Positions 14,413-56,907 of a DNA stretch of 64,000 bases are shown here, piece by piece. A model generated the notes under the pieces. It did not search any database. It was given only the letters and a program-made list of their open reading frames with translations, and was not told where the DNA came from. The position numbers and the translations under genes were made by a program. The number at the start of each line of letters is the position of its first letter. The first letter of the stretch is position 1. Source of the DNA: Terriglobia bacterium (GTDB lineage Bacteria; Acidobacteriota; Terriglobia; Acidiferrales; UBA7541); assembly GCA_963695545.1 (NCBI GenBank), contig OY968796.1:2752001-2816000 (forward strand), read 5' to 3'.

Positions 14413-17400
14413 TGCAACGCGCACCACTGTGGCGGAATTTTCTGCGCTGGAATCCGGCGTTCTGGAGAATGTCGGGCCGCAGAGCGCTGCTCCTGCTCTC
14501 TCTCGTTCTTTTCGCCGGCATCGTTCCCGCCGGCGTGCGCGGCGCTGACGAAGCCTACTTCTCGATCTCCACCAGCAAAACATTTCTTCCGGGCGAACAA
14601 ATCGGCATTCATCTGTACGCCTCCGGCGTGGACGCGCTGGAATTCCGTATTTACAAAGTCAAAGATCCGGTTGCGTTTTTCGAGGGTCTGGACGATCCGC
14701 ACCAATTTGGTCACGTCTCCGAAAACGAAGAAATCGAAACGCCGAGCCGCCTCGAGCTCTTCTACGATTGGAAACAGGAACTGTGGGGCGAGATTCGCGA
14801 ATTCCTCCGCATGCAATTTTCGTGGCGTTCGCGCGCCGCGATTCGCGCCGAAGAGTTGCGCGCAAACGGCACGAAGATCGGCAGCGCGGCCGTGTTCGCG
14901 CAGGCGCCCGTGCTGAACAGTTCGCAACTCGTCGCGCGCTGGCGGCAAGCGCTGCCTCCGCGATTTATTTCTGAGTCGGAGGATGTGCCCGTTAACTCGC
15001 TGCCGAAGGGCGCGTATCTGGTCGAAGCGACCGACGGCACGCTGCGCGCCTACACCATCGTGATCGTCAGCGATCTGGGCGTGCTCACCAAGTCCGCGCC
15101 CGGGCAAGTCGTAGCGTTCGCAGCGGATCGGCAAACCGGCGTGCCGGTGGCCGGCGCGGACGTGCGCGTTTGGGCGGACAAGAAAGAAGACGCCCACGTG
15201 CAGACCGACGCGACCGGAATCACAGAAGCTCAATTGCCGGCCGGCCAGTTCAACGACGTGCGCGTCCTCGCCGTGCACGGTGACGACGTTGCCGTGGTGA
15301 TGCCTTATTCTTACAACGTCAGCAGCGATCCCACGCAGGACTGGACCGGATACGTCTACACCGATCGGCCGGTTTATCGCCCCGGCGACACCACGCATTT
15401 CAAAGTCGTTCTGCGATCGCGCAAACAAGTGGGCTTTCAATCCATCTATCAAGTTCCCGCCGGGCAGAACTTGCAGGTGCTGATCGAAGACCCCGCGAGC
15501 AAAGCGGTTTTGCAATCGAACTTTACGGTTTCGTCGTTCGGCACGCTGCACGGCGATCTCGATCTTCCAGCCGGCGCCGCGCTCGGTTACTACTCGATCG
15601 CGGTCAATAGCGCTGGCGGCCAATCGTATCCGATCTCCGGCGGATTCTACGTTGAGGACTACAAGAAGCCGGAGTACGCCGTGAAGGTCACGCCGGCTAT
15701 GCCGCGCGTTCTGCAAGGTGGATTTATCGAGGCCACTATCGACGCCGAGTATTACTACGGCGAGCCGGTGGCCGGAGCGGCCGTCACTTACGACGTGCAC
15801 ACGTCTCCGTATTATTCGCCGTTCATCGATCGCAATTCGGACGACGATTCCGACGCGGACGCCGGGCCAGCGGACTCCGACGATAGCGCGAGCGACGACA
15901 GCGACGATCAGGATTATTCGGGCGATGAAATTTCGGAGCAGACCGGTCAATTGGATGCAAACGGACAATTGCAGATTCGCATTCCGACTCGTGCGGACAA
16001 AGACCACCAGGATATGGTGTACAGAATCGAGGCGCGCGTCACCGACGCCGCCAATCGCGAAATCGACGGGCACACCGCCGTCATCGCTACCTACGGAAGT
16101 TTCCAGGTGGGCATTTCGCCCGAGAATTACGTGTACAAGGCCGGCGATACCATTCGCGCGACCGCCGTGGCCAAAGACTATGACGGAAACCCGATTCAAA
16201 CCGCCGTCCACGTCGTACTCGTGACGCAGAGTTCCACGGATCCGCAGAACCCTGGAGTTACGGTCGAATCGCACGACGCGCAAACGGCAGCGGACGGCAC
16301 AGCCGTCGTCACCTTTGCGGCGCGCGACGCGGGAGATTTTGTTCTGCGCGTCTCGGCGCGCACACCCGAAAAGCGCACGGTGAACGGTGATTCGTGGCTT
16401 TGGATCACGGGCGCCGCCGAAAATTGGTGGAGCGGAGACACCAAGGGATTCCGAATCATCCCGGACAAGAAATCGTACAAAGTGGGCGACACCGCGCACT
16501 TGCTTGTGCTCACCGGCGTGCCCGATGCCTATTTGTTCGTGAACAAGGAAGCCAGAACGGTTCAAGGCCGATGGGTGGTTCACGGAACATCGCCGGCCGT
16601 AACCGTGAACGTGACCTTCGAGGCCGCGCAGCAACCGAACGTATACATTTCGATTTCGTTTTTCCACGGCAACACGCTCTATCAGGCCAGCAAGAATTTC
16701 AATTTGCCCGCCGTCCAGCAAAAACTGCAAGTCGCGATCCAACCATCGGCAACGCAGTTCGAGCCGGGTCAGAAAGCTACCTACACGATCCAGGCGCACG
16801 ATTCCGATGGAAAACCCGTTGTGGGTGAATTCAGTCTCGGCATCGTGGATGAAGCCATCTACGCCATTCATCCCGATGCGAGCGGCGACATCAGCAACGC
16901 GTTTTTCGGACCGGCCTACGACAACGTTTCGTCCGATTCGTCGCTCAATTTTTATTTCAGCGGAGAAGCTGGCGCGAAAGAGATGTTCCTCGCGTACGAC
17001 AGCGCAAATCGCCCGCGCCCGCTCGCGCAATTGAAGCCGACGGAAACGCTGGTGCAGCCGAAGGTGCGAAAGGTGTTTCCGGATACCGCGCTGTGGATGG
17101 CGGACATCGATACCGACGCGAAAGGGCAAGCCATCGCGCAGCTCGAGTTTCCGGACTCGCTCACGAGCTGGCGCGCCACGGTGCGCGGCGTCACCGTGGA
17201 CACCAAAGTCGGTAGCGCGACCAACAACGTGATCGTGCGCAAGAATTTGATCGTGCGCCTGGTGGTGCCGCGATTCCTCCGGCAGGGCGACGAAGTCGTG
17301 GTGTCGGCGATCGTGGACAATTATCTGCCGACCGCGAAGATGGCCCAGGTATCTCTCGACGTGAAAGGCTTGGACGTGTTGAGTGGCGCGACGACGCAAG

Positions 17401-19163
17401 TGCAAGTCGCAAGCAAAGGTGAAGCGAAAATCGATTGGCGCGTGCGCGCACAGTCGGTGCCGTCGGCGGACATTATCGGCAAAGCACTGACCGATCAGGA
17501 ATCCGACGCGATGGAGCTCACGCTGCCCATACTGCCGGTGGGCGTGAAGCAGACCGATGCGAAATCGGGCTCGCTGGCCGCGGCCGAACAGGATGAAACA
17601 ACTACGGTGACTCTACCCGGCGATCCGGCTCTCGCGGCGCCGGCGCTGGATATTAATCTCAGTCCCTCGATTGCCGGCAGTATTTTTGCGGCGCTCGATT
17701 ACCTGACGAGCTATCCATATGGCTGCACCGAGCAAACCATGTCGAGCTTCTTGCCGGATATTGTCGTCGCCCAAGCGATGAAAGATTTGCAACTCACGAC
17801 GACTGTAGACACGCCGGAACTCGAACAACAAATCCAAGCCGGAATGGCGCGTCTGAAAGATTTCCAGCATGCGGACGGCGGTTGGGGCTGGTGGAAAGAC
17901 GACGATAGTCTCGTATTCATGACGGCCTACGTCGTGAGCGGTTACGGGCAGGCGCACGCCGCCGGTTACGACGTCGATTCCGATTCGCTCGCGAACGCGG
18001 AAGGTTATCTGCATACCGCGCTGCAAAACAATCCGGACATGCGCGCGGATTTGCGCGCGTACGTGGTGTACGCGCTCGAGCTGAATGGCGCGGCGCAGAG
18101 CGATGAACTCGCAGCGGCTTGGGATGCGCGCGGTTCGATGACCACGCAGGGTCTTGCCATGCTGGGTCTCGCGTTCCAAGGCACGGGCGATTCTGCGAAG
18201 GCGCAGGAAATGGCGGCGAAAATCGAATCTCTCGCCACGGTTGACAATCAGGAAGCGTACTGGGCCTCGGATTATGATTCGTTCATGGAATTCGAGATCG
18301 AAGATTCCGCGGAAACCACGGCGTACGCGGTGCGCTTGCTGAGTGTGGCGAAACCTTCGAGCGCACTGCTGCCGAAGGCCGCGTTCTGGCTGGTCAATAA
18401 TCGCAACGGCGGATATTTCTGGGACAGCACGAAGCAAACCGCGATGGTTGTTTTCGGCCTCACCGAATATTTGAAAGCCAGCCACGAACTCGGCGCCAAT
18501 TTCCGCGCCGACGTGTACGTCAACGGCAAGCAGGTGACTTCCAAACAATTCACCGCAGCGGACGCGTTCAATCCGGCGCAGCCGGTGATTCATCTCGATT
18601 CTTCGCAGCTGCAGTCCGGAGTGAACCAAATCCGCATCCACAAAACGGGCGCAGGGCGACTTTATTGGTCGGCGAGCGGATCCTATTATTCGACGGACAA
18701 GCATCTGGTGCAGAACAACAAGCTTTCGCTGAACATCACGCGCGATTATTTCAAGATGGTTCCGGAACAAACCGGCGGAAAGATTGTGTACGACCTCGAT
18801 CCGCTCGCGGGCGATTTGCAGGTGGGCGATGTCGTAGCCGTGCGCATCACGCTGAGCGGCAGTGAATGGCGTTATCTGCTGATGGAAGATCCGATTCCCG
18901 CGGGAGCGGAATTCATCACCAGCGACAATCTCTACGAATTGAAACAGCCGCCTTCGTGGTGGGAATCCGATTATACCAGCCGCGAATTTCACGACGATCA
19001 TGCCGCCATCTTCCAGGATTATTTCACCGGGCAGCGCGAGTACGTGTATCTGCTGAAAATTGTGAATCCCGGGAAATTCCAGGTGAGTCCGGCTGAAGTG
19101 CAGCCGATGTACCAGCCGTCGATTTTCGCGACGAGTGACGCGACCACCGTGGAGGTGAAGTGA
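14412..19163 (+). CDS. Bacterial alpha-2-macroglobulin with intact thioester motif
   Basis: YTDRPVYRPGD, VEDYKKPEY, VRKVFPDTALW, FPDSLTSWRAT, YPYGCTEQ (CTEQ at 17724-17735), QHADGGWGWW, EDPIPAG, PMYQP. TGATG overlap with the upstream gene. Confidence 0.95.
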   Translation: MQRAPLWRNFLRWNPAFWRMSGRRALLLLSLVLFAGIVPAGVRGADEAYFSISTSKTFLPGEQIGIHLYASGVDALEFRIYKVKDPVAFFEGLDDPHQFGHVSENEEIETPSRLELFYDWKQELWGEIREFLRMQFSWRSRAAIRAEELRANGTKIGSAAVFAQAPVLNSSQLVARWRQALPPRFISESEDVPVNSLPKGAYLVEATDGTLRAYTIVIVSDLGVLTKSAPGQVVAFAADRQTGVPVAGADVRVWADKKEDAHVQTDATGITEAQLPAGQFNDVRVLAVHGDDVAVVMPYSYNVSSDPTQDWTGYVYTDRPVYRPGDTTHFKVVLRSRKQVGFQSIYQVPAGQNLQVLIEDPASKAVLQSNFTVSSFGTLHGDLDLPAGAALGYYSIAVNSAGGQSYPISGGFYVEDYKKPEYAVKVTPAMPRVLQGGFIEATIDAEYYYGEPVAGAAVTYDVHTSPYYSPFIDRNSDDDSDADAGPADSDDSASDDSDDQDYSGDEISEQTGQLDANGQLQIRIPTRADKDHQDMVYRIEARVTDAANREIDGHTAVIATYGSFQVGISPENYVYKAGDTIRATAVAKDYDGNPIQTAVHVVLVTQSSTDPQNPGVTVESHDAQTAADGTAVVTFAARDAGDFVLRVSARTPEKRTVNGDSWLWITGAAENWWSGDTKGFRIIPDKKSYKVGDTAHLLVLTGVPDAYLFVNKEARTVQGRWVVHGTSPAVTVNVTFEAAQQPNVYISISFFHGNTLYQASKNFNLPAVQQKLQVAIQPSATQFEPGQKATYTIQAHDSDGKPVVGEFSLGIVDEAIYAIHPDASGDISNAFFGPAYDNVSSDSSLNFYFSGEAGAKEMFLAYDSANRPRPLAQLKPTETLVQPKVRKVFPDTALWMADIDTDAKGQAIAQLEFPDSLTSWRATVRGVTVDTKVGSATNNVIVRKNLIVRLVVPRFLRQGDEVVVSAIVDNYLPTAKMAQVSLDVKGLDVLSGATTQVQVASKGEAKIDWRVRAQSVPSADIIGKALTDQESDAMELTLPILPVGVKQTDAKSGSLAAAEQDETTTVTLPGDPALAAPALDINLSPSIAGSIFAALDYLTSYPYGCTEQTMSSFLPDIVVAQAMKDLQLTTTVDTPELEQQIQAGMARLKDFQHADGGWGWWKDDDSLVFMTAYVVSGYGQAHAAGYDVDSDSLANAEGYLHTALQNNPDMRADLRAYVVYALELNGAAQSDELAAAWDARGSMTTQGLAMLGLAFQGTGDSAKAQEMAAKIESLATVDNQEAYWASDYDSFMEFEIEDSAETTAYAVRLLSVAKPSSALLPKAAFWLVNNRNGGYFWDSTKQTAMVVFGLTEYLKASHELGANFRADVYVNGKQVTSKQFTAADAFNPAQPVIHLDSSQLQSGVNQIRIHKTGAGRLYWSASGSYYSTDKHLVQNNKLSLNITRDYFKMVPEQTGGKIVYDLDPLAGDLQVGDVVAVRITLSGSEWRYLLMEDPIPAGAEFITSDNLYELKQPPSWWESDYTSREFHDDHAAIFQDYFTGQREYVYLLKIVNPGKFQVSPAEVQPMYQPSIFATSDATTVEVK

Positions 19164-19969
19164 TGGCGCGGCGGGGAATCGTGCGCGGCGCGCTGGTCGG
19201 CACGCTGCGCGATCGTCGGCTGTGGCTCCTGCAGTTTTTCGCGAATCCAGTTCTGGCGGTGCTGTTTGCAGTTTGGCTGCTGATTCCGGTGGCGAATGCT
19301 TGGTACGTCGTTTTGAACGTGCTCGTGGCGCTGGTGATTGCGGCGTCGGTGGTCGTTCTGCATGGAGGCACGCTCGATTATTTTCGCGATCGTGAACGGG
19401 ACGACAGCGCGCCCTTGAAGCCCGCATTTGTTCGGGCGCTGCGACATGTGCTCGCGATCGCTGTATGTGTGGCCGTGTTTTATTTGTTCTGGCGGCTCAT
19501 GGATCGTGTGGACGCGTATCAGGATTCGTTGCCGGCGTATTTGCGATCGATCATGCCGGTTTTCTTGCGGCGGCACATCACATTGGGATTTCTGGAATCC
19601 GCGTATGGCTGGAAGGTTTTTGCATTGCGCTGGTTGATTGTTCCTGGATTGATCTTGCCATTCGTGATTGCCGCTGCGGATCGAGGTTTTAGCGGCTTCG
19701 GCGGCGCGGGCTTCGCCGCTTGGAAACGCGCAGTGTGGTGCTTGTCGTATTGGGTTCTGCTGGTGGTGGCAGTCATCGTGGGAGTTTTGGCAACGCAGGC
19801 GGTCATGGCTTGGACGCCGAATCTCGCGGCTTCGACATTTCGGTTTGAAACAATCAGTTTGGTTGTACGCGCGATTTGCGCTTACGATCTCGGCCTGTGG
19901 GCTTGGGTGCTCGCGTGTTACGCGGTCGCGCACGCGTCGTCTGCTCCGGTTGACGAGGCGGCTCATTGA
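19163..19969 (+). CDS. Uncharacterised multi-pass membrane protein
   Basis: Several hydrophobic segments; TGATG-coupled to the macroglobulin gene. Confidence 0.7.
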   Translation: MARRGIVRGALVGTLRDRRLWLLQFFANPVLAVLFAVWLLIPVANAWYVVLNVLVALVIAASVVVLHGGTLDYFRDRERDDSAPLKPAFVRALRHVLAIAVCVAVFYLFWRLMDRVDAYQDSLPAYLRSIMPVFLRRHITLGFLESAYGWKVFALRWLIVPGLILPFVIAAADRGFSGFGGAGFAAWKRAVWCLSYWVLLVVAVIVGVLATQAVMAWTPNLAASTFRFETISLVVRAICAYDLGLWAWVLACYAVAHASSAPVDEAAH

Positions 19970-21708
19970 GGCGCGCAGGTTGAAGCGTCAGCGGGAATGC
20001 CGGACGCGAGCCATTCGATCACTGTTTGCCTTCCGTGCAGTTTGACCAGCGACGCGACGCGGTTTTGTGCCGCGGCATAGGCTTTTTCCTCGTCATTGCG
20101 GTTGGCAGCGTCTAGAAGGCCGGCTTCCATCTGCTGGTCCGTCATGGCGGAAGCATTCGCCGGCTGCGCGTCGGGATTCGCGAGATAGAGGACGATCCCT
20201 TCGCGAAACCAGAGCGGCGTGTTCGGTTTTGCGCGCGACTCCACCAGAAGATGAAAGAATTCATGGCGCAGCGTGGATTCGACGATGGAGCGGCGCTGCA
20301 ATTCAATGAGCGGCTGCAGTCGAATGACGTGGCCGCGCACGGAGGCGGCGATCCAGCCGGGCTCGCCGGTGGTATCGCGATAAGAATCCATCGTCGGAAA
20401 CAATTGGAGTTGCGGGCGGAAAGCGAGTTGCCAGCCGATGGCGCGCTCGTCGTCCTCGAGGATGCGGTCGGCGATGGACAAGATTGCGGCATCGGCCTGT
20501 GGATTCGTGCTGAGGAGATCGAGGCGTTCGCTCGATTGTTTCTGCCAGATTTCGGCGCGAGCCGAGACGAGTTCGGTGTCGGGATAATAGAAGTTCAGGA
20601 TGTCGCGATAGGTTTTTCTCTCGCGCGCCATTTCTTCCGCGCCGGCCTGGCAGAGGCCGACGCCGTGGCCCGATCCGCGGCCTGAGAAAACAATCTGGCC
20701 GCCGGTGCTGTTGACGTCGTAGAGATCGCTGCGAATTTTGTTCCAGCCCAGGGCTCGATCAACCGCAAAACGAAACGTGGAAGCGGCAAGCGGAACATTC
20801 GCGGGAGTTCCGCCGGTGAAATTCAAGCGTTGCGCGCGGCCGCTCGCGGTGCGTGAGGCGACTTCGAGATTTGTCCAGTGCGCTGGGAGCAAGAGGCCGG
20901 CGGCACGCAGGGCGTGATCGATATCGGCGATGGAGATCGTGGTCTCCCACTTAAGAGTGCCGGCGGCGAGGCAGTATGGATCGGCATGCGCGACGAGATA
21001 GGGCTCGTGATTCGTGGGCCACTCCTCGGAGCTGGCCGCGATGGCACCGCCGCAATTCTGATGGTAGTAAGTTTCGGCGGGAGCGCCGGCGTAGGACAAG
21101 GTTTGGCCGCGCGTGTCGTCTACTGCGGCGGCGATTCGCGGGGCAACCGCATCGAGGCTCATGGCCTGGCAATGCGTAGTGTCGCAGAAATCGAACCCCT
21201 GCTTCGCGTGCCTGCCGCGAAAACGCAGAGCGTAAGTGCGGATTGCGACCGCCATGGCTTTCAAGGATTCCGATTGCTTGAAATCGCCGCTTTCGGCAGC
21301 GAGGACGGCCTTGACGTAATCTTCGATCGGCATATTGACCGTGATCAGAAGCTGGCCGCCGAGCGTGCGGATGCGCAGTGGGAACTCCGATGAGAATGGC
21401 GGCGCATCCGCGCTGGCCGGCGGATGGAGTTGGTAGTTTCCCGCGATGTAAAGGTCCGGCGTTGTTTGCTCGGCGGTGGATTGCGAGGGTTCGAGCGTTA
21501 GTCCGGAAATTGTGGCCGCAACGGAGAGGCTCGCGCCGGTTTTGGCGGGACACGTAGGGCAGGTTCGCCAGGTGATCGCGTCGTCTGTGGCGGCAATGGT
21601 GATGTTTGCTGGCGGGTGCGCGGCGTAGAGGCGCACATCGAAGCTCTGCGCGCGCAGCGCGCACGCGGGAGCGACGCAGAGAATTGCGGCGATGAGTTTC
21701 CATTTCAT
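19963..21708 (-). CDS. SpoIID/LytB-domain protein (YfaQ-like) with C-terminal HExxH peptidase-like domain
   Basis: IEDYV..VL.AE, LKAMAVA.RTYA, DFCDTTHCQ, G.GHGVGLCQ.GA..MA, IL.FYYP; then LRHEFFH...PLWFREG; signal peptide. Confidence 0.88.
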   Translation of the reverse strand: MKWKLIAAILCVAPACALRAQSFDVRLYAAHPPANITIAATDDAITWRTCPTCPAKTGASLSVAATISGLTLEPSQSTAEQTTPDLYIAGNYQLHPPASADAPPFSSEFPLRIRTLGGQLLITVNMPIEDYVKAVLAAESGDFKQSESLKAMAVAIRTYALRFRGRHAKQGFDFCDTTHCQAMSLDAVAPRIAAAVDDTRGQTLSYAGAPAETYYHQNCGGAIAASSEEWPTNHEPYLVAHADPYCLAAGTLKWETTISIADIDHALRAAGLLLPAHWTNLEVASRTASGRAQRLNFTGGTPANVPLAASTFRFAVDRALGWNKIRSDLYDVNSTGGQIVFSGRGSGHGVGLCQAGAEEMARERKTYRDILNFYYPDTELVSARAEIWQKQSSERLDLLSTNPQADAAILSIADRILEDDERAIGWQLAFRPQLQLFPTMDSYRDTTGEPGWIAASVRGHVIRLQPLIELQRRSIVESTLRHEFFHLLVESRAKPNTPLWFREGIVLYLANPDAQPANASAMTDQQMEAGLLDAANRNDEEKAYAAAQNRVASLVKLHGRQTVIEWLASGIPADASTCAPQ

Positions 21709-22631
21709 TGTGGCCGCCGATTTTTTGCAAACGCGGCGAAGACCGATTGAGCGACGGCGGCGGCATCCATCCCGCGGCCTTGTTCTAGAAAGACGACCAT
21801 CACGATTTCCGGATGGTCGGCTGGCGCGTAGCCGACGAAAAAGCCGTGCGTGCGCGGCGTGTTCGCGGATGCGGCGGTTCCGGTTTTGCCGGCGATCTTC
21901 ATGCTGTCTACAAATGCAGCATGCGCCATGCCAAATGCGACGGAGTCCTCAAGGCCCGCGAAGACGGGAGCGTCGGCGCCGAGATCGCCGGTGCGCTTTC
22001 GTAGCGCGAGCTGGCGATAGGCTTCGAGGAGACTTATCGGCGTGACTTCGATTCCTCGGGCGCCGAGAGCTTCGAGCTGCAAATCCTGCTGATTCGCTGG
22101 GACGGAGATGTGGCCGACGGATTCGTTGTCCGCGAGGCCGCTTGGGGAGTCGAGGCCAGCGCGACGGAAGGCGGTGACCAGTTCGAGAGCGCTGAGTCGT
22201 CGCGCGACCGTTGCGACGTAGGTGTTGCAGGAATAGGCGATGGCGTTTTCGGCGTTCAGTTCGGTGATGGATGCGGGGTGTGTGCAGTCCATTTCGATTG
22301 AGCCGATGCGGAATTTGCGCCGGCAAAAAATGCGCTGAGCGGGATCGAGTTTCCCGGATTCGAGAAGCGCGTCCAGGACGAAGGGCTTGAGAGTGGAGCC
22401 GGGTCGCTCGAGACTCTTTTCGGCGGATTCGAGATTGTGCGCGGCGAGGATCGCGCCGGAGGAGACATCCATCACCACGAGCGCGCCGGAGTGCGCGGCC
22501 ATGGCTCGGTCGGCGGCTTGCTGGAGGATGGCATCGCGCGCGGGCGCGGCGGCGGAGGGAGAAACGGCCAGGGCTGCGGCGAGGAACATCGTGGCCGAGC
22601 GGGAACTGAGTTGTGGTTGCACGATTTTCAC
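21705..22631 (-). CDS. Penicillin-binding protein consisting of a transpeptidase domain only
   Basis: SxxK (PGSTLKP), SxN (YSCN), KTG (AGKTGTA); ATGA overlap with the SpoIID gene. Start GTG 22631 or ATG 22589. Confidence 0.85.
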   Translation of the reverse strand: MKIVQPQLSSRSATMFLAAALAVSPSAAAPARDAILQQAADRAMAAHSGALVVMDVSSGAILAAHNLESAEKSLERPGSTLKPFVLDALLESGKLDPAQRIFCRRKFRIGSIEMDCTHPASITELNAENAIAYSCNTYVATVARRLSALELVTAFRRAGLDSPSGLADNESVGHISVPANQQDLQLEALGARGIEVTPISLLEAYRQLALRKRTGDLGADAPVFAGLEDSVAFGMAHAAFVDSMKIAGKTGTAASANTPRTHGFFVGYAPADHPEIVMVVFLEQGRGMDAAAVAQSVFAAFAKNRRPQ

Positions 22632-22765
22632 GGGCCTCAATATGCATCGGGGGCGGCGCGGTGTCCAAACTAAACGTCGCTGGCGAGGGAGCGGCCGCGC
22701 GCACTGCGGATTTTGCCGCGGCGAGTGAAGTCGTAAGTTGATGAAAAACAATCGGATGAATTCGA

Positions 22766-23351: not shown

Positions 23352-25370
23352 ATGACAGATTCCACTGAGCCAGAAGGAAAACGGGCGCCTGACGGAAGTG
23401 CCGCGCCCGACAGATACGAGATTGCGCAGCCGGAGTCTTATCCGGCGTTTTCGAGCCCAACCGTGACTCCGGAGACAGCAGCTCCGGGTGCGGCGCCGGC
23501 GGCAACCGCAATCGCGGAGACGGACTTTGCGCCGCGCATGTTGCCCGCTGAAGCAGAGCGCGGTCCATACGCGGAGTCTTGGGACGACGGTGACAAGACC
23601 GCGCCCGCGGCGGCGGACAAACCGAGTTTCTTCTCTTCGCACCTGAAGAGGACGAAAGAAAAAGAGGCGCACGGCGTTCGCGAAAAGCGCGCGGTCTGGA
23701 TCGTGCATGGCATGGGGCAACAAATTCCGTTTGAGACTGTCGACAACTTGACGCAGGGCCTGCTGAGCGTGGCTTCGCCCAAGGGAGTGACGCCGCGGCT
23801 GCGCACGGTGAAGCTGGGCAACCAAACGATGCAGCGCGTGGAATTGGATGTGGACGGCGTGGAGATGAAGGATGGCAAGCCGCTGCGCCAGTATGAATTG
23901 CATCTTTACGAGGCGTATTGGGCGCCGGAGACGGAGGGCGTGGCGAAACTGCAGGACGTCATGAGTTTTCTTTGGGATGGGGCTTTGCGCGGACTGCTGA
24001 ATTCTTTGGAGAGTTTCAGGCGAGCGATGTTCGGCGGAATGCAGACGTTTCGGATTCACAAGCGAACGGCGATCTGGATTTCGATAACGCTGTTGCTTCT
24101 GCTGGCCCTCGGAGTGATCAATGCAGTGGTGGTGGCAGCGGGGGCCGCGGCTGCGGCGGCGAAAATTGGCGTGTCTTCCCTGGGCTCTCTGCCGTTCGGT
24201 TCTTATTGGCCGCCGCTGACGGCGCTGGCGAGTTGGATGACGGCCGTCGCGTTTACGTTCGGGACGGTGCTTTATCTGGCGGAACTAAGCAGACCGGACA
24301 ATTTGCCGCACGTGATTCGCGTGGCGATTTCGGTTTTAGGCTGGGCGGCGACGGCCGCCACAGCGGCGACGATTCTGGCGACGGCGGGCGTGATGGCGCT
24401 GGCGACGGACACGGATTGGGCGCGCGGGTGGCTCGAACATTTGCCGCAAGCGAAACTGCAGGCGTTTGCGACGCTGCTGATATTGAGCTGCGCTGCGGTG
24501 GTGGCGGCGTCCATGGGGTGGCGCGGGCATTTGCGATCGTCGGAACAGGAATTGCGGGCGAATCCATTCTTGTTGTTCTTGTTTGCGCTGGCCTTCGCGA
24601 TTCATATCGTTGCCGTGGGCGCTCCGCTGATGCGTTTGGCGGGCCATCATTTCCATGTGACGTTGCCGGCGTATTTGAATTGGGCGTCGAACTCGATTTG
24701 GGTGTGGCCATTCCTGATCGCGCTGAGCACGAAGGTGCGCACGATCATGGTGGAGTATGTGGGCGACGTGGCGATCTATGTGCAGCCGAACAAAGTGGAT
24801 CGCTTCAGCAAGGTTCGCGACGAAATCAAGAAGACCGTGAGCGATGTGGCCTCGGCAATTTATCTGGCATGCGAGGCGGGCACGAACGATTTTCTGTATC
24901 ACGAGGTCGCGGCGGTGGGGCATTCGCTGGGATCGGTGATCGCCTACGACACGCTGAACCGGTTGATGCTGGACGATTGGCTCGGGCGGAATCATCTGGG
25001 GATTGCGGATCGGACGAATTCGCTGGTGACGTTCGGTTCGCCACTGGACAAGACCGCGTTTTTCTTTACCATCCAAGGCAAACAGACGCTGCATATCCGC
25101 GAGCGATTGGCCGCGACGGTGCAGCCGATCATCGAGAGCTACCGGAAATTCCGCAAATTCCGGTGGATCAACGTGTATTCGGGAAACGACGTGGTTTCAG
25201 GGAAACTGATTTTTTACGACCTGACGGATATGCAGACGCCGAAGGAAGTGCCGCCGCTGGCCGTGCACAATCTGATCGATCCGAATGCGTCGGTTCCACT
25301 CGTGGCCCACGTGGACTATTGGAAGAATGAACTCGTGTGGACGCAGCTGATGCAGCAGATCGCGCCGTAG
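23352..25370 (+). CDS. Alpha/beta-hydrolase (lipase-like) with a large multi-TM insertion
   Basis: IVHGMGQQ and YEAYWAP, then a hydrophobic block, then GHSLG, VTFGSPL, WINVY..NDVVSG, AHVDYW. Confidence 0.75.
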   Translation: MTDSTEPEGKRAPDGSAAPDRYEIAQPESYPAFSSPTVTPETAAPGAAPAATAIAETDFAPRMLPAEAERGPYAESWDDGDKTAPAAADKPSFFSSHLKRTKEKEAHGVREKRAVWIVHGMGQQIPFETVDNLTQGLLSVASPKGVTPRLRTVKLGNQTMQRVELDVDGVEMKDGKPLRQYELHLYEAYWAPETEGVAKLQDVMSFLWDGALRGLLNSLESFRRAMFGGMQTFRIHKRTAIWISITLLLLLALGVINAVVVAAGAAAAAAKIGVSSLGSLPFGSYWPPLTALASWMTAVAFTFGTVLYLAELSRPDNLPHVIRVAISVLGWAATAATAATILATAGVMALATDTDWARGWLEHLPQAKLQAFATLLILSCAAVVAASMGWRGHLRSSEQELRANPFLLFLFALAFAIHIVAVGAPLMRLAGHHFHVTLPAYLNWASNSIWVWPFLIALSTKVRTIMVEYVGDVAIYVQPNKVDRFSKVRDEIKKTVSDVASAIYLACEAGTNDFLYHEVAAVGHSLGSVIAYDTLNRLMLDDWLGRNHLGIADRTNSLVTFGSPLDKTAFFFTIQGKQTLHIRERLAATVQPIIESYRKFRKFRWINVYSGNDVVSGKLIFYDLTDMQTPKEVPPLAVHNLIDPNASVPLVAHVDYWKNELVWTQLMQQIAP

Positions 25371-25499: not shown

Positions 25500-26585
25500 C
25501 TAGATGAGATGTTCGAGCTTTACGTGTTCCTGCGCGTAGGCGCGGCCAAGTTCGCGTAACTCCGGGATCATCTTCACGTCGTCTAGCTTCGACAATTTGG
25601 AATCCGCGAGCAGCAACGCCTGGGCTTCTTTTCCCAGAAACGACCGATTGTAGCGGACGTAACTGAACCATTTGCGGCCAGGGAGATCGAGGCCGACAAG
25701 GTCGCCGATTTCGGAATCGATGGTGTCGCCATGGAGGCATTCACCGAGGCAGCGGCAAAGATAATCCTGCTCGAGAGCGATGCCCTGAATCAACGCCGCG
25801 GGAATTCGAGGCAAATTGAAGCCCAGCCACATTTGCTTTGCGGTGGTGTCAAAGGCCGCGGTGGAGAAACGCATCGCGCCGATGGAAATCATGCGAATTT
25901 TGTCCGGGCCGGGCTCCCAGGCGATTTTGTAAGGTGGGAGCACAGCGGTGAGCGCGGCGATCAACGCGGGATTGTTATACGGCGTGATGCCGCCATCCAC
26001 AAAAACGTGAAGACGATCGCCAAGCATGATTTGTTCAGGATCGAAGTACGTGGGCGCGGCAGTGCTGGCGCGCACGAGCTTGAAAAGAGGAATATTCAGA
26101 TTGCAATCCGCGAGACTGGAATCGTTGTAGAGGGCTTTGGGATTGTTGGTGACGGGCCAGGCCGAACCGGTGGTCTGATTGCGGACTACCACGAGCAACA
26201 GGGTTTTTAGTTTCCTGGTACTCAAGAGGGCGGGGATTTTACCCGCGCCGTCTTCCGAAAAAGTGCGCTGGAGGAGTTCGGAGAGAGGCTTGGCTTCGTA
26301 GCGGGAGTGGATGTACTTCTTCGGGTTGTACCAGGGAACGGGCTCGAACATGGTTCTGCCGTGTTGAACGTAGACGTCCATGATGGTTTGCGCGTCCATC
26401 CCCCAACTGAGGGCCGTGGCGATCATCGCGCCGGTGCTGGTGCCAGCGATGAAATCGAAATGATCCGCGAGCATGAGTTTCGGATTGCCGTAATGTTCGC
26501 GAAGCAATTCCTGCATGCGGAGCAGAATCTCAAGCGTGAAAACGCCGCGAATTCCGCCGCCGTCGAGGGAGAGAATGTGTTTCAT
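25500..26585 (-). CDS. Patatin-like phospholipase
   Basis: LSLDGGGIRG, AGTSTG (catalytic Ser), RASTAAPTYF, FVDGG (catalytic Asp), NNPA. Confidence 0.93.
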   Translation of the reverse strand: MKHILSLDGGGIRGVFTLEILLRMQELLREHYGNPKLMLADHFDFIAGTSTGAMIATALSWGMDAQTIMDVYVQHGRTMFEPVPWYNPKKYIHSRYEAKPLSELLQRTFSEDGAGKIPALLSTRKLKTLLLVVVRNQTTGSAWPVTNNPKALYNDSSLADCNLNIPLFKLVRASTAAPTYFDPEQIMLGDRLHVFVDGGITPYNNPALIAALTAVLPPYKIAWEPGPDKIRMISIGAMRFSTAAFDTTAKQMWLGFNLPRIPAALIQGIALEQDYLCRCLGECLHGDTIDSEIGDLVGLDLPGRKWFSYVRYNRSFLGKEAQALLLADSKLSKLDDVKMIPELRELGRAYAQEHVKLEHLI

Positions 26586-26589
26586 GGGA

Positions 26590-28092
26590 TTATTTGCTCG
26601 GCAGCTTGCGATGCCGAATGACGGATCTCCACTCGATCACCTCGATCAGAAGAGCGCGCTCGATGCGATTGGCCACGTGTAGCACGCTGGACCAAGTGCG
26701 CAGGCGTTCGAGCTGTTTATCCCATTCGGCGAGCAGGTAGTACATTTCGCGATAGCGCTGCCGGCGCCGTTCACAATCATTCACCACAATCAGCGCGCCC
26801 GCAACCGTGGCGATCTCGAAAGCGACCGAGGCCGCGAGAGCGAGGCCGTGCTCCCAGGGTAGCAAATTGGCACTGTGGAAATGACGAGCGCCGGTGTAGA
26901 GCCAGACGTTTGCCAGAATCGCAAGAACGATTGAGATGCGGATCACGGCGTGATACGTCTCCGCCTCCGCGTTTGATTTCGCGGCGTGTCTTTTGAAGTA
27001 GGCAAGCTGGTCGGCCACGCGTTCATCGCGATAGTGTTGCTTGAATTCTTGGAGGGGCATTTTGGCTTGCGCGCGATCGCGCATTTTCAGGAGATTGAGC
27101 GAGATCAGCAAGCCGGAGAATTCGGGGATGACTTCCGGTCCGATGACTTGATAGGCAGTCGGCGCGTGCCAAAAAGCCAGAACGGAGCGGCACACTTCGG
27201 CCGCGGTGCGCGTGCGCGCCCACACATTTTGCCGCCCGTGCAAACGCAGCGCGATCGGAAGCACGGCGGCCGCGACGCCCAGCGCCGATCCGACGGAGAG
27301 CAATAGGCCCACGTTGTGGGCCCAGGAAGCGGCTCCAGTGAAGAGCGCGGCGGCCGCGGTACAGATAATGGGGATGGCCGCCAAGCGGCGGAGCTGCGGC
27401 GAGGATTGGTTCGCGCACTCGTCCATTTTGCGGAACCAGGCCCAGACCAAGCCCTGGGGCGTGTGAGTTTCGGCGTCCTCTTTCGGGTCGGGCAGATTGT
27501 TCAGGAAATCGAGCTCGGGATCGTGGAGCAGCTCCTGCTCGGATTTCTTATTGAAGGTGTGCGCTTCGCCGGTCGCACTGTGGAACCACACCACGGGTCT
27601 GCCGAGATCCTTGGCAAACGACACGATGTCTTCGGTGCCGCCCATGCCCTGCGACGCTTCGCCATTCCAGAGCGCGACGAGCAGCCGGCTTTGCTGCACG
27701 GTTTCGATGCCGCATTCGTAATAGAGCTCGTCGCGCGGCTGATTGCCCCCCGTGATCTCGACGGAGACGGCTTTCTTCATGATCTTCTCGGCGCGGGCCC
27801 AAGTGGGCTCGTCGAAATCTTCGCGGAATTGTTCGACGGGCATGGGCAGAAGAACCAGAAGGGGAATTTCCAATTCAATGCAACTTTCATCGAAGAGCAG
27901 ATCGGCGCCGGCGGCGACGGAGGCCACGCCGTAGATCATGCCCGGGGCGGCGGCCTTTCGCTCGCTGAGAAAGTCGTAGAGGAGCTTTCGGCACTTCGAT
28001 TCGTCGGGAAGGGTGCGGTGCCCAGTAAATCCGATGGCCAGCGTCGCCGGAAGCCGGATCGAAGAGGATGTCGCGCTCGGCTGTGGCGTCAT
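26590..28092 (-). CDS. SLOG-superfamily domain fused to two SLATT/DUF4231-like 2-TM modules
   Basis: IGFTGHR, A.GADLLF.E, LLP, LVALWNG...GGT.DIV..A...GRPV (SLOG); TM pair plus W.RTR.AAE..RS; R..DQ..YF, second TM pair, Y..M...E..L..E...W. Confidence 0.75.
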   Translation of the reverse strand: MTPQPSATSSSIRLPATLAIGFTGHRTLPDESKCRKLLYDFLSERKAAAPGMIYGVASVAAGADLLFDESCIELEIPLLVLLPMPVEQFREDFDEPTWARAEKIMKKAVSVEITGGNQPRDELYYECGIETVQQSRLLVALWNGEASQGMGGTEDIVSFAKDLGRPVVWFHSATGEAHTFNKKSEQELLHDPELDFLNNLPDPKEDAETHTPQGLVWAWFRKMDECANQSSPQLRRLAAIPIICTAAAALFTGAASWAHNVGLLLSVGSALGVAAAVLPIALRLHGRQNVWARTRTAAEVCRSVLAFWHAPTAYQVIGPEVIPEFSGLLISLNLLKMRDRAQAKMPLQEFKQHYRDERVADQLAYFKRHAAKSNAEAETYHAVIRISIVLAILANVWLYTGARHFHSANLLPWEHGLALAASVAFEIATVAGALIVVNDCERRRQRYREMYYLLAEWDKQLERLRTWSSVLHVANRIERALLIEVIEWRSVIRHRKLPSK

Positions 28093-28125
28093 GGTTCGGC
28101 CTGCTCGAGAGCGGGCACGGTCAGA

Positions 28126-29562
28126 CTATTGTGTGCTCAGCTGAAGAATCGACGGAAGCGGGAACTTGGAAATGTCGACGGTGACCTGCGCGGTAAGCTG
28201 AGTGAGCAGGCGAAAAACGTCGCGGTTCCAATCCAGGTCTGCGCTGGGATTCGCCGGCGGCGGCGCGCTGGCGTCAGTAACGGCGTACGATGCATTCCGG
28301 TAGGTCAATTGAACCAGTGGCGGAATGGTTGGCTGGGTAGCGTCCCACTTGAGATGCAAGATCGGCTGCTGCTCAACCGGAGGGACCACGTCGGTGAATG
28401 GCAAGGTGGCGTTCGGATCGGCCGCGGTGGGGGCGGGGATGGCAGGATTTGTCGACATGAAATCTTTGAAACTGTCCTGCTCCTGAGCTGCCGCGGCCAT
28501 CACGCCGATCAGAGAACGCATCACGATCTCGCACGAGAATTTTTTCTGGTCGGCCACGTCGGTCGCGTTGTAACTCTGCTGAACAGTGAATCCATCCTTA
28601 AGGACCTGGACAAAGATCTGTTGGACGGTTTGTCCTGCCAGTCCACCCTTGTTCAATTCCGGCATGTCGGCGTCGATCGTGGCGTTCAGAGCGGCATCAG
28701 CGGCAGCCTGCGTCTCGCCTGCGGCCGCGGGCTCGTTCAAAGTAAATACGCCGACGACGTTGTCCTGATTCAAATCCCATTGGCCCTTATCGTTCTGCCT
28801 CCAAACTAGCCCCTTGGATTGCGCGTCCATAATGTTTTGGGCGGTCGGTGGACCAACGATGGACGAGCCGGCAACGGGAACGAACATCTCCTTGCCTTGC
28901 AAGCGCAAAAAGCCGCGCTTCTGCATCTCGTAGGCGATCGCGCTGACTCGAAGGAAGCGCGCATAGTTTTCGGCATTATCGAGAGTGGCGGAATTGCGGA
29001 TCACTTCCCAATACTTTGTGCCGGGCTGGCGAAACTCGATGCGATCGACCATCAGGCGGAAAAGCTGGTCCACGCGCCAGCCTTGCTGATAAAGGTTGTA
29101 AAAAATCAGAGGATCGATCGGCTTCAATAATTGCTGGGCCGTTGTGTCGTCATTCACCGGAATGAACTGGAAGCTGGGATTTTTCTGGTAGAACAGGGTC
29201 GGCGTCCCGCCGCCGATCGCGTTGCCGGCGGAAGCGGTGCCCTGAATCACATAGTTTCCGGTGCCCTGGAGGCCCGCCGACATTTGGTACGACGTAGCGA
29301 TCTGTCCGAGCTTGAAGAAATACGTCGGGTCGTGCTGATCGAGGCGCGCCAAGTTCAAGAGCATCTCGCGGTTGGAAGTTAATGCGTAGATGTCCTCGTA
29401 GTCGGTGTAGTCCGCCTTCAGGCGTCCCGCGGCGGAGCATCCCGACACAAACATGACGAAGAGGCACACAGGAGCCAGAAGACTTCCGGTGCGCGGTCTC
29501 GGCTTTGGCAACGGCGTCTCGCTGATCCGGTGCCCAAGGGGGCATGAAGTTCCGGGTTTCAT
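28126..29562 (-). CDS. Uncharacterised lipoprotein, paralogue B (478 aa)
   Basis: Lipobox FVSGC; core EMLLNLARLDQHDP.FFKLGQI...P.FQFIPVND...LLKPIDP..FY.LYQQGWRVDQLFRLMVDRIE shared with the upstream gene. Confidence 0.8.
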   Translation of the reverse strand: MKPGTSCPLGHRISETPLPKPRPRTGSLLAPVCLFVMFVSGCSAAGRLKADYTDYEDIYALTSNREMLLNLARLDQHDPTYFFKLGQIATSYQMSAGLQGTGNYVIQGTASAGNAIGGGTPTLFYQKNPSFQFIPVNDDTTAQQLLKPIDPLIFYNLYQQGWRVDQLFRLMVDRIEFRQPGTKYWEVIRNSATLDNAENYARFLRVSAIAYEMQKRGFLRLQGKEMFVPVAGSSIVGPPTAQNIMDAQSKGLVWRQNDKGQWDLNQDNVVGVFTLNEPAAAGETQAAADAALNATIDADMPELNKGGLAGQTVQQIFVQVLKDGFTVQQSYNATDVADQKKFSCEIVMRSLIGVMAAAAQEQDSFKDFMSTNPAIPAPTAADPNATLPFTDVVPPVEQQPILHLKWDATQPTIPPLVQLTYRNASYAVTDASAPPPANPSADLDWNRDVFRLLTQLTAQVTVDISKFPLPSILQLSTQ

Positions 29563-29579
29563 GTCTATTGAATTGCGTA

Positions 29580-29618
29580 ATTCTATATACAGAGTGGGCG
29601 GTTGACAACATCAATGTT
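29580..29618 (-). promoter_or_regulatory. Sigma70-type promoter TTGTCA-17-TAGAAT with AACA-N4-TGTT inverted repeat (copy B)
   Basis: Plus strand ATTCTA 29580-29585, TGACAA 29603-29608, AACA-tcaa-TGTT 29607-29618; same hexamers and spacing as copy A. Confidence 0.7.
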
Positions 29619-29660
29619 TCTTGCTCGCGGCGATTGGCGGCCGGAAGGCGGGCGCGCAGC

Positions 29661-31556
29661 TTATTGAGCGGTCAACTGTAGGATTGTCGGAACGGGGAAC
29701 TTGGAAATGTCTACCGTAACCTGCGCGGCGAGTTGAGAGATGAGGCGAAAGGAATCACGGTTCCAGGCGGCGTTATCGTCGGGCAGCGCTGGCGCGCGCT
29801 GGCCGTTGGCGGGCGCGTTTGGGGCGCCCTTGCCCGCGGCTTTCACGTCCGTGACCAGGTATTGCTGATTGCGATAGGTGAGTTGAACCAGCGGCGCGAT
29901 GACCGAATCTTCGGGCTTCCACGTGAGGGTGATGATGGGCTGCTGCTCGATGCGCGGCACGACATCGGAGAAGGGCCGCATCTCCGTCGTGCCGGCTGCC
30001 GTGGGAGTGGGGATGTACGGATAATTTTTCAATTGATCGAATTCGTCCTGCTCCTCCGCGGCCGCGGACATCACGCCGATCAGAGAACGCATCACCAAGT
30101 GACAAGAGACGTTTCCCGAGTCGTCGCCGGAATCGGCTGAGTTCGACGCGGAAGCGGCGGAGTCTTTGGTCGAATTCGTTGAGCCTTGGGCCGAAGCCGT
30201 GGAGCTCTTGCCGGGAGTTGCGGAGTTCTTTGTCGAATGTGAGGACCCTCCGGCAGAAGAGCTTGTCGTCTCGTCGGTGGAATCCGAAGAGTCGTCCGGC
30301 GAGTCTGCTGAGTTGACGTTTCCTTCAACCGTGAATCCGCTCTCGAGAATGGCGAGAAACACCTGTTGAACGTTCTCACCGCCCCTTCCACCAACGGCCA
30401 GTTCGGGCATGTCCGCGTCGATTCTGACGATCATAGAATTCTGCGCCGAAGCGGCGGCAGTGGCAGCGGAGGTCTTAGCAGTGGCAGCGGCGGTCGCGTC
30501 AGCGGGATTTGCAGCCGCCGTTTTAGCATCGGTTGCGGCGGCGTCGGCGTCAGCGGCGGCTTTGTCGGCGGCGGCTTTGACACTCTCGGCGGCGATCTTA
30601 GCGGCAGCGGCGGCAGGATCGCCGGGATTGGAATTCGCCGTGGCCTCGGCGGCGAGAGCGGACGCATCGGCATCGTCAGCGGCATTTTGCAGCTCAGCCG
30701 GAGTGGTGGGCACGTTCAAGATAAACACGGGAATCAGCTTGCCCTTCTTTTCCAGCTCCCACTCGCCGGTGGTCGCGTCCTGCTTCCAATTGAGGCCTTG
30801 GGATTGCGCATCCAACATGTCTTTCGCGGAGGGCGGGTTCCACGATTCGGAGGTGCTCACGATGCGAGTGGGTTGCTGGCGGCCTTCCAGGCGCAAGTAT
30901 CCGAGCTTCTGCATTTCGTAGGCCACCGCGCTGACGCGAAGAAACCGCGCGTAGTTCTCGACATTATCCAGCGTGGGAGCATTGCGGATGACTTCCCAAT
31001 ACTTGCCGTTCGGCTCGCGAAATTCGATGCGATCCACCATCAACCGGAAGAGCTGATCGACGCGCCAGCCCTGCTGGTAGAGCGCATAAAAAATTTCAGG
31101 GTCGATGGGTTTCAATAAGAGTTGAGCCGTGGTGTCGTCATTCACCGGGATAAATTGAAACGTTGGGGTCTTCTGATATGAGACGGTTGGGGCCCCGCCG
31201 CCGCCCACGCCGTTCGCGTTGCTCGTGGGACTGAACATGCCGTTGCCGGTCAGCGAAGCGCCCATTTGATATTGCGTTCCAATCTGCCCGAGCTTGAAGA
31301 AAAATGTGGGATCGTGTTGATCGAGACGCGCGAGATTCAAGAGCATTTCCTGGTTCGAGGTCTGCGCGTAGGCAGCTTCGTAATCGGTGTAGTCGGCCTT
31401 CAATCGCGTCGCGGCGCAGCCGGATGAAAAAATCAAAGCGAGGCACAGGGGCGCGAAAGTCAGCAGGGCGATGATCCGACGAACCGCGTCCGACCGTTTT
31501 TGCGGCAACGTCGCACGCCTCCGGCGATTTCCGGTGCGATGTGGATTGGGCCCCAT
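29661..31556 (-). CDS. Uncharacterised lipoprotein, paralogue A, with Ala-rich and Ser/Thr/Asp-rich insertions
   Basis: Lipobox FSSGC; same conserved core as paralogue B. Start moved to ATG 31556 because the ORF-track start at 31607 lies upstream of the promoter. Confidence 0.8.
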   Translation of the reverse strand: MGPNPHRTGNRRRRATLPQKRSDAVRRIIALLTFAPLCLALIFSSGCAATRLKADYTDYEAAYAQTSNQEMLLNLARLDQHDPTFFFKLGQIGTQYQMGASLTGNGMFSPTSNANGVGGGGAPTVSYQKTPTFQFIPVNDDTTAQLLLKPIDPEIFYALYQQGWRVDQLFRLMVDRIEFREPNGKYWEVIRNAPTLDNVENYARFLRVSAVAYEMQKLGYLRLEGRQQPTRIVSTSESWNPPSAKDMLDAQSQGLNWKQDATTGEWELEKKGKLIPVFILNVPTTPAELQNAADDADASALAAEATANSNPGDPAAAAAKIAAESVKAAADKAAADADAAATDAKTAAANPADATAAATAKTSAATAAASAQNSMIVRIDADMPELAVGGRGGENVQQVFLAILESGFTVEGNVNSADSPDDSSDSTDETTSSSAGGSSHSTKNSATPGKSSTASAQGSTNSTKDSAASASNSADSGDDSGNVSCHLVMRSLIGVMSAAAEEQDEFDQLKNYPYIPTPTAAGTTEMRPFSDVVPRIEQQPIITLTWKPEDSVIAPLVQLTYRNQQYLVTDVKAAGKGAPNAPANGQRAPALPDDNAAWNRDSFRLISQLAAQVTVDISKFPVPTILQLTAQ

Positions 31557-31575
31557 ATCGAGCGATTTGCGCGCC

Positions 31576-31617
31576 ATTCTATATATGGTCCTCGCGGCTG
31601 ACAACACAAATGTTGTC
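31576..31617 (-). promoter_or_regulatory. Sigma70-type promoter TTGTCA-17-TAGAAT with GACAACA-N4-TGTTGTC palindrome (copy A)
   Basis: Plus strand ATTCTA 31576-31581, TGACAA 31599-31604, palindrome 31600-31617. Confidence 0.7.
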
Positions 31618-56645: not shown

Positions 56646-56734
56646 GGAGAGGTGTCTGAGCGGTTGAAAGAGCTCGCCTCGAAAGCGAGTAGCCTCAAAA
56701 GGGCTCGTGGGTTCAAATCCCACCCTCTCCGCCA
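56646..56734 (+). tRNA. tRNA-Ser(CGA)
   Basis: Acceptor GGAGAGG/CCTCTCC, discriminator G plus CCA; anticodon arm CTCGC-CTCGAAA-GCGAG; long variable arm; GGTTCAAATCC T-loop. Confidence 0.96.
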
Positions 56735-56907
56735 CTTTCGCAAGAATCCCCGTTTCGCGCTTACCGGCCGATGCTAGAAGCCCGCACCGTTTTTCTGGCG
56801 TCAGCCGAAGGCAAACCAGCGTGCTCGTCCCGTTGGAGACTTGGACATGCTCCCGCAAACGTCGGGCAGCGCATATGCGCGCAAAGTTACAATGTACGAA
56901 TTCGCTC

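Follow-up and report, generated by a model that had tools for sequence, protein, structure and literature searches.

A lipoprotein, a protein joining a YpsA-like SLOG domain to two SLATT-type domains, and a patatin-like phospholipase form a conserved unit (the triad) in soil Acidobacteria. We found it among four co-oriented genes of a Terriglobia bacterium (assembly GCA_963695545.1), in a stretch of 64,000 nt (contig OY968796.1, positions 2,752,001-2,816,000, forward strand; the window below means this whole stretch). The triad is a real, conserved and apparently unnamed module that likely works like Thoeris, although we do not class it as a Thoeris member. We consider it rather probable that it is the effector arm of Thoeris-like signalling, whose receptors with TIR and nSTAND1 domains are encoded elsewhere in this genome.

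An alignment scan of genomes with the SLOG-SLATT protein gave at least 65 loci; all counts out of 65 loci, and out of the 36 with the triad, refer to the matches listed. All three genes were present at 36 of the 65 loci and the lipoprotein gene at 37, and the patatin gene lay directly behind the SLOG-SLATT gene at 42. Clustering at 90% identity reduces the 36 triad loci to 33 clusters, of which 22 have a TIR gene in cis. Among 201 genomes of the family, 13 have the lipoprotein gene, in every case directly before the SLOG-SLATT gene. The co-occurrence on which a first-pass annotation of the window had staked its proposal of a defence system thus holds across genomes (36/65 loci, 13/13 family genomes). 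In the reverse scan with the lipoprotein, the best 80 of 238 metagenome loci, many on short contigs and some near-duplicates, had SLOG-SLATT (64 loci), patatin (58), TIR (28) and STAND (24); at the 16 loci with both flanks of at least 9 kb, SLOG and patatin were present at 15 and TIR and STAND at 12. The gene order was variable (lipoprotein-SLOG-patatin, SLOG-patatin-lipoprotein or convergent).

TIR genes were found at 48 and nSTAND1 genes at 25 of the 65 loci. Of the 36 triad loci, 24 have a TIR gene no more than 10 kb away; the background for such a stretch in the present genome is about 3%. The loci show four layouts. In layout A, as here, the triad stands alone; this layout occurs on several branches of a quick tree (9 of 66 rows excluded as partial or frameshifted), with at least 5 changes. 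Layout B has genes for a SIR2-like-TIR protein and an nSTAND1-TPR protein and then the triad, and layout C has a secreted hydrolase, TIR-nSTAND1-WD40, SLOG-SLATT, patatin and lipoprotein. Layout D (18 loci, e.g., L034:8003-11494) consists of TIR-TM-DUF4185 (TM, transmembrane) and SLOG-SLATT only, with neither patatin nor lipoprotein; because the 14 layout-D loci in the tree form one clade, it is roughly one evolutionary event. Layout D resembles a minimal pair of Toll-like receptor and effector. A Caballeronia plasmid (L209) carries cyclase-TPR-S, a distant lipoprotein, SLOG-SLATT-SLATT, TIR and nSTAND1-WD40 together, and a verrucomicrobial locus (L195) has TIR, TIR, lipoprotein, patatin, TPR-S-like and TIR genes; parts of the module also recur at L187, likewise in Verrucomicrobiota. 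TPR-S domains were seen at L038, L195 and L209.

In the present genome, TIR and effector genes do not share an operon, and the nearest TIR_2 matches lie hundreds of kilobases away. The first-pass annotation had seen no gene for TIR, STAND or cGAS/DncV-like nucleotidyltransferase (CD-NTase) in the window. This stands for the 35 window open reading frames scanned, none of which matched these families in Pfam, but not for the system, whose partner genes most relatives carry in cis and the present genome in trans. The genome encodes a type B pair (C1 1,028,029-1,034,099; SIR2-like-TIR, 65% identity; nSTAND1-TPR, 42-43%), a type C receptor, TIR-nSTAND1-WD40 (C1 3,239,059-3,243,171; 68%), and further TIR-TM proteins. 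A double-TIR gene followed by one for a probable P-loop NTPase with a membrane helix (C1 1,343,798-1,349,051) is another candidate receptor pair. Among the family genomes, a type B adaptor or type C receptor was present in 13 of 13 with the lipoprotein and in 2 of 188 others, and nSTAND1 in 13 of 13 and 13 of 188, respectively; these genomes are kin rather than independent and the links are mostly in cis, so that Fisher values overstate the case. Both exceptional genomes (L197, L198) have a patatin and a SLOG-type gene or fragment: in G135, the patatin is accompanied by a SLOG-SLATT fragment at a contig end, and in G153 by a short protein beside the sensor, SLOG-like by eye only and with no profile match. 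Within the genus, an unlinked TIR-nSTAND1-WD40 gene occurs in three of three genomes with the triad (G000, G007 and G033) and in none of three others. Furthermore, the triad stands alone in nine Acidobacteriaceae genomes, six of which encode nSTAND1 elsewhere.

The TIR glutamate, which we take to be the catalytic one, is kept in 22 of 22 aligned rows. A TIR domain with this predicted catalytic residue is thus associated with the effector, as in Thoeris, in cis at 24 of 36 triad loci and in trans here. In 24 of 24 long STAND proteins the NTPase leads into a hydrophobic helix, as does the TIR domain in 27 of 36 N-terminal TIR proteins, usually with basic residues ahead of the helix; at least one single-helix protein of that build is encoded at 47 of the 49 loci with TIR or STAND. 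The WD40, TPR, BNR, Sel1 and DUF4185 domains downstream of the helix would be periplasmic. These sensor repeats are highly variable among loci. The lipoproteins had been put forward as sensor or pore, but the predicted membrane-spanning TIR/nSTAND1 proteins are better candidates for the sensor role. An active NADase in the SIR2-like domain of the adaptor was considered and rejected, as the domain reads STTFD and lacks the HG of active sirtuins.

The features of the locus, all on the minus strand except the repeat, for which no strand is assigned, are as follows.

31603-31614 and 29607-29618, AACA-N4-TGTT inverted repeat upstream of and touching both -35 boxes; possible operator
31576..31604, minus strand, sigma-70-like promoter copy A (TTGTCA-N17-TAGAAT), pattern match upstream of lipoprotein A
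29661..31556, minus strand, lipoprotein A, 631 residues from the likely start (frame open to 31607); paralogue of B, accessory copy
29580..29608, minus strand, sigma-70-like promoter copy B (TTGTCA-N17-TAGAAT), pattern match upstream of lipoprotein B
28126..29562, minus strand, lipoprotein B, 478 residues, core member; lipobox VSGC (Cys42), no Pfam family or fold match
29158..29316, minus strand, long beta-hairpin predicted in the model of lipoprotein B (residues 83-135); candidate membrane-spanning barrel element
26590..28092, minus strand, SLOG (YpsA-like) with two SLATT-type 2-TM domains, 500 residues; predicted signal-gated inner-membrane effector
25500..26585, minus strand, patatin-like phospholipase, 361 residues, S50/D197 dyad intact (Pfam and motifs)

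The four genes are real, and their domain labels and spacing as first annotated hold; the open frames (29661-31607, 28126-29562, 26590-28092 and 25500-26585) are separated by 98, 33 and 4 bp.

The model of the SLOG-SLATT protein had a predicted local distance difference test (pLDDT) score of 86.8. For the SLOG domain (residues about 16-190), the top structural match was YpsA (2nx2; Z 18.3, root-mean-square deviation 2.6, 155 residues aligned); other matches were DprA (Z 15.1) and the cyclic ADP-ribose-binding SLOG of ThsA (Z 8.3), and a Foldseek match had an E value of 4e-4. Across 118 homologues, the FTGHR and GxD motifs show little or no variation, and G62 and D64 show none. With its predicted Rossmannoid fold and GxD motif, the domain is a member of the YpsA-like clade of the SLOG superfamily. 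The GxD motif of YpsA is tied to substrate binding in PMC6459960. Four hydrophobic helices in two pairs follow the SLOG domain. The SLATT_3 match of the window protein is weak (E 0.0026, below the cut-off); SLATT_3 and SLATT_1 were both seen in five of five close homologues tested, SLATT_1 above the cut-off in two and near it in three. By these profile matches, the C-terminal part is predicted to hold two SLATT-type 2-TM domains in tandem (SLATT_3 plus SLATT_1). Searches found no longer fused SLOG-SLATT forms (969-2765 residues), which is weak evidence, and no match for SLOG-SLATT among phage sequences. A second, divergent SLOG-SLATT-SLATT family of about 600 residues was also seen (L076:4807-6639, L091:5198-7030, L013:18481-20241 and L038:18879-20678), often transcribed away from a SIR2-like-TIR gene of the same locus. 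TIR-led gene arrays that adjoin members of this family (L203:5718-19334 in G157 and L204:4968-11103 in G130) suggest receptor expansion.

The patatin matches Pfam PF01734 (E 4e-24) and has the GGGIRG, GTSTG (S50) and DGG (D197) motifs, and S50 and D197 were found in 93 of 93 locus homologues aligned over at least 300 residues; with GGGxR, GxSxG and the Asp of DGx in place, it is predicted to be a patatin-like phospholipase. It has no signal peptide by hydropathy. It matches a PADLOC phospholipase profile (E 1e-44) and CapV structures (E about 1e-18). One locus in a metagenome-assembled Vicinamibacterales genome (L074, 9755-13016) has a single 631-residue frame that joins SLOG (Pfam YAcAr, E 1e-5) to patatin, with a TIR-TM gene adjoining; this one fusion has no SLATT, and no lipoprotein gene is present there. 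At L072, a stand-alone SLOG gene is followed by patatin, SIR2-like-TIR and nSTAND1 genes.

Lipoproteins A and B are paralogues (E 5e-155). In B, a hydrophobic segment is followed by the lipobox VSGC, as expected of a bacterial lipoprotein, and the lipobox cysteine is kept by 101 of 105 homologues in a close set and by all 46 in a diverse set. Lipoprotein A has Ala-rich and Ser/Asp-rich inserts, and its lipobox, SSGC, departs from the consensus. The twin lipoproteins stressed in the first-pass annotation are not a feature of the system: the second copy is missing from two same-genus loci, and only one other tandem pair (L073) occurs among the 65 listed loci. No match for the lipoprotein was found in Pfam, NCBIfam, PADLOC, PDB sequences, the PDB and viral sets of Foldseek or a wide VIA search. 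The best structural match had a Z of 4.1 with the whole 478-residue model as query, and an absent fold match is no proof of a new fold. The family is large (2,698 clusters at 50% identity). The predicted model of B (pLDDT 82.9) has a long hairpin at residues 83-135; positions 84-128 are rich in Gly/Ser/Thr (41-42% versus 17-20% elsewhere) and poor in charged residues (8-10% versus 22%), and the hydrophobic residues alternate. The C-terminal TVDISxFP is invariant and sits in a low-confidence part of the monomer model, which would fit ordering within an oligomer. From the model, we tentatively suggest that the lipoprotein may be an outer-membrane pore made via the beta-hairpin rather than a sensor.

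The proposed mechanism is as follows. A receptor with a cytoplasmic TIR and/or nSTAND1 domain, a single membrane-spanning helix and, on the periplasmic side, WD40, TPR or propeller repeats would bind a cue from an invader or from damage and oligomerise; the architecture is from hydropathy, and the sidedness and the sensing are proposed. In a variant of this step, a separate SIR2-like-TIR adaptor would be coupled to an nSTAND1-TPR protein. The TIR domain, whose Glu is conserved, would turn NAD+ into an ADP-ribose derivative, and because such a signal diffuses, the receptors can be unlinked, as here. The YpsA-like SLOG domain would bind the signal, and the tandem SLATT helices fused to it would open an inner-membrane pore. 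SLOG would also license the patatin to hydrolyse phospholipids, as suggested by the gene coupling and the one SLOG-patatin fusion. In the last and weakest step, which taken alone is doubtful, an oligomer of lipoprotein hairpins may open the outer membrane and so complete lysis or release material. The attacked cell would die or go dormant.

Outside the triad, the promoter and neighbouring genes were considered. The first-pass annotation had placed the genes downstream of one promoter; a promoter-like site is present, but in two copies, one ahead of each lipoprotein gene. The exact pattern TTGTCA-N17-TAGAAT occurs three times in the 4.16-Mb genome, two of them at this locus. Of 112 lipoprotein homologues, 9 have it upstream, against an expected 0.04, and most of these are close relatives; AACA-N4-TGTT precedes 4 of the 112, against an expected 0.46, all of them close relatives. 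The probable start of lipoprotein A is 31556 rather than 31607, since the start codons further upstream overlap with the -10 box. The GC content of the locus, also at third codon positions (GC3), equals that of its neighbours and the genome average, and a recent horizontal arrival was rejected for lack of any GC or GC3 shift. The locus is syntenic within the genus: two same-genus loci (L011 and L049) share the flanks, with one lipoprotein gene and no facing hydrolase. Close homologues carry the label Candidatus Acidiferrales.

The hydrolase gene that faces the operon (23352-25370; alpha/beta-hydrolase-like, GHSLG motif, four membrane helices) is an insertion relative to the same-genus loci. 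The ESM Atlas, which gave only unnamed clusters in the search at this locus, places its product in an unnamed Acidobacteriota family without a common Pfam domain. It had been proposed as a possible part of the module and was rejected, being absent from both same-genus loci, from all 65 listed SLOG-SLATT loci and from all 80 lipoprotein loci. Positions 13510-22751 hold genes for DUF1175, alpha-2-macroglobulin and a membrane protein, with SpoIID/LytB and transpeptidase genes in convergent orientation; within the genus, this envelope-protection cluster keeps its synteny with the triad. An RHS-repeat/DUF6531 protein is encoded amid TPR genes at 56707-58110. In other genomes, secreted dienelactone-hydrolase-like genes flank type C loci (L017:5034-5771 and 14298-15140), one with a 62% orthologue in the present genome (C1 3,507,002-3,507,736). 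At three loci (e.g., L013:17281-18468 and L038:12806-13957), nSTAND1-TPR is followed by a Phenol_MetA_deg-like gene, which we take to encode an outer-membrane barrel. At L092 (G110) and L082 (G054), lipoprotein, SLOG-SLATT and STAND genes are interrupted by frameshifts or a stop, which may reflect either assembly error or decay.

Several points weigh against the triad as a TIR-driven effector arm. The whole mechanism rests on predicted functions, and the receptor topology on Kyte-Doolittle hydropathy only. The SLOG domain is nearer to YpsA (Z 18.3) than to the ThsA SLOG (Z 8.3), so its ligand is uncertain and it could be an enzyme rather than a signal reader. The evidence in trans comes from three same-genus genomes (Fisher p 0.1, the non-triad congeners being 66-92% complete), the co-occurrence is mostly cis linkage among kin, and the metagenome loci contain near-duplicates. 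The other three of the nine Acidobacteriaceae genomes with a lone triad have generic TIR genes only, of a kind present in 98 of the 201 genomes. The lipoprotein is dispensable in relatives: it is missing from 28 of the 65 listed SLOG loci. Some lipoprotein loci with long flanks (L154 and L158) have no SLOG. Of 11 distant-lipoprotein loci that the lipoprotein retrieved, only one has module partners, so the wider lipoprotein family is not defence-specific. Furthermore, the linkage to defence islands anticipated in the first-pass annotation was not seen: of the 157 flanking proteins picked at 20 of the 36 triad loci, 133 were scanned, and PADLOC at 1e-10 matched 6 of these, all partially and to accessory or generic domains, with no system among them. 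The triad flanks are not defence islands, and the trigger may therefore not be a phage. The average GC and GC3 and the genus synteny of the locus count on the same side; many mobile anti-phage systems differ from such a stable, genome-average locus.

A wider view is that of a genome-wide Toll-like network, in which several unlinked, single-pass TIR and TIR/nSTAND1 receptors would survey the periplasm on behalf of a shared effector operon. Its products would breach the inner membrane by the SLOG-gated SLATT pore and the SLOG-licensed patatin and the outer one by a pore-forming lipoprotein of undescribed fold, perhaps against predators or competitors in addition to phages; we regard this as rather unlikely.

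Among the alternatives, non-lethal signalling of envelope stress or cell contact, in which the TIR receptors would respond to a periplasmic cue and the triad would remodel lipids or ion flux with no killing and no relation to phage, survives best, and we consider it unlikely. It agrees with flanks that have no defence islands, the stable chromosomal site beside the alpha-2-macroglobulin/SpoIID/penicillin-binding protein cluster, a consensus promoter that suggests steady expression, the secreted dienelactone-hydrolase-like and outer-membrane barrel genes that travel with some loci, and the housekeeping-like role of Bacillus subtilis YpsA (PMC6459960). However, all of the recognisable partners (TIR, nSTAND1, SLATT, patatin, TPR-S and cyclase) are conflict-system domains in the literature, the distribution is patchy (13 of 201 genomes) and the sensor repeats are highly variable. 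The conflict or cell-death reading of the first-pass annotation is favoured. The particular model of that annotation, a self-contained module in which the lipoproteins sense and SLOG makes or processes its own signal with no TIR input, is quite improbable. No TIR was present in the fetched stretch at 12 of the 36 listed triad loci, 3 of the 9 lone-triad Acidobacteriaceae genomes have no nSTAND1 match, and SLOG domains can be enzymes (PMC9503650). Nevertheless, the specific TIR-nSTAND1-WD40 is retained in trans in the present genome and in the two other triad genomes of the genus, lipoprotein and patatin are both missing from 18 loci at which SLOG-SLATT accompanies a TIR-TM gene, and tandem lipoproteins are rare. 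An offensive or export system, in which SLATT and lipoprotein channels would release patatin or other cargo against competitors or predators once TIR receptors fire, is very improbable: a putative operon does unite a channel predicted for the inner membrane, a hairpin barrel that is a candidate for the outer membrane and an enzyme with no signal peptide, but the triad has no conserved immunity gene or ATPase, the best solved relatives of the patatin are cytoplasmic CapV-type effectors, and the SLOG-patatin fusion does without SLATT at a locus with no lipoprotein.

The module was compared with known systems, and no named system was matched in PADLOC or NCBIfam profile searches, as the first-pass annotation had foreseen. 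In Thoeris types I, III and VII, conserved-Glu TIR genes are linked to a SLOG (I and III) or SLATT (VII) effector, and in type I SLOG reads the TIR signal (10.64898/2025.12.03.692087 and PMC13276650). The former, a 2025 survey, also includes phospholipase and membrane proteins among its untested effectors and removed Avs-type TIRs. Here, in contrast, one protein combines two SLATT domains with a SLOG that resembles YpsA rather than ThsA, two extra conserved genes (patatin and lipoprotein) are present, the TIR genes are unlinked in this genome, and the partner TIRs are predicted single-pass receptors or coupled to nSTAND1. The described Thoeris effectors are SIR2-SLOG, a type III SLOG protein and the SLATT-only ThsH; the SLOG-SLATT protein has no SIR2 domain and no match to Thoeris effectors in PADLOC or NCBIfam, where coverage of ThsH and of every type III effector model is uncertain. 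With CapV of the cyclic-oligonucleotide-based anti-phage signalling system (CBASS), the module shares a patatin with a Ser-Asp dyad (PMC12480259). The patatin is below the CBASS_lipase cut-off (129 bits versus 200) and is here coupled or fused to SLOG; no CD-NTase was matched in the operon, and SMODS PF18144, the one family searched, had no match in the genome (93.8% complete). CBASS was rejected on the lack of a SMODS match and the patatin score.

With Avs and nSTAND1 systems, the module shares a STAND NTPase with C-terminal repeat sensors and an N-terminal TIR or linked TIR adaptor, whereas two features set it apart: a membrane helix separates the NTPase from the repeats in all 24 long partners, and a separate three-gene effector arm is attached. 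No Avs profile matched among the 24 partner proteins scanned, and no STAND gene was among the scanned frames at the locus. PMC8195603 and PMC10907252 predict nSTAND1 systems with periplasmic or cytoplasmic sensors. As for the literature on SLOG, SLATT, TIR and patatin, its accessible text, that of PMC7159879, PMC13434031 and 10.1101/2023.05.26.542521 included, describes neither the triad nor the lipoprotein (the 29 putative effectors in Fig. 1C and the supplements of the 2025 survey could include this one), and our search gave no paper with SLOG, SLATT and patatin together. SLOG-SLATT-TIR and patatin-SLOG links are shared with the SLOG/SLATT/TPR-S conflict systems and BcTir/Tpr. Burroughs et al. 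2015 and Burroughs and Aravind 2020 reportedly predicted SLOG-SLATT-TIR and patatin-TPR-S-SLOG links in general terms (as cited in PMC6459960, PMC7159879 and 10.1101/2023.05.26.542521) and may cover parts of the module. CsgG is an outer-membrane lipoprotein channel built from beta-hairpins, and the lipobox and the long, Gly/Ser/Thr-rich amphipathic hairpin recall it by analogy only; the present lipoprotein matches no solved chain in sequence or fold and has one predicted hairpin per chain.

If the triad is the effector arm of Thoeris-like signalling, TIR second-messenger immunity would gain receptors that cross the inner membrane in the manner of Toll-like receptors, and a three-protein effector arm that includes an exported lipoprotein, and its sensor and effector genes could sit megabases apart. 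Surveys that start from defence-island enrichment, or that drop STAND-fused TIRs, as 10.64898/2025.12.03.692087 reports having done, would tend to miss such a module. The module would also allow a direct test of the ligand of YpsA-clade SLOG domains, a question left by PMC6459960, and would offer an initial clue to the function of a lipoprotein family (2,698 clusters at 50% identity) that has no annotation and no fold match.

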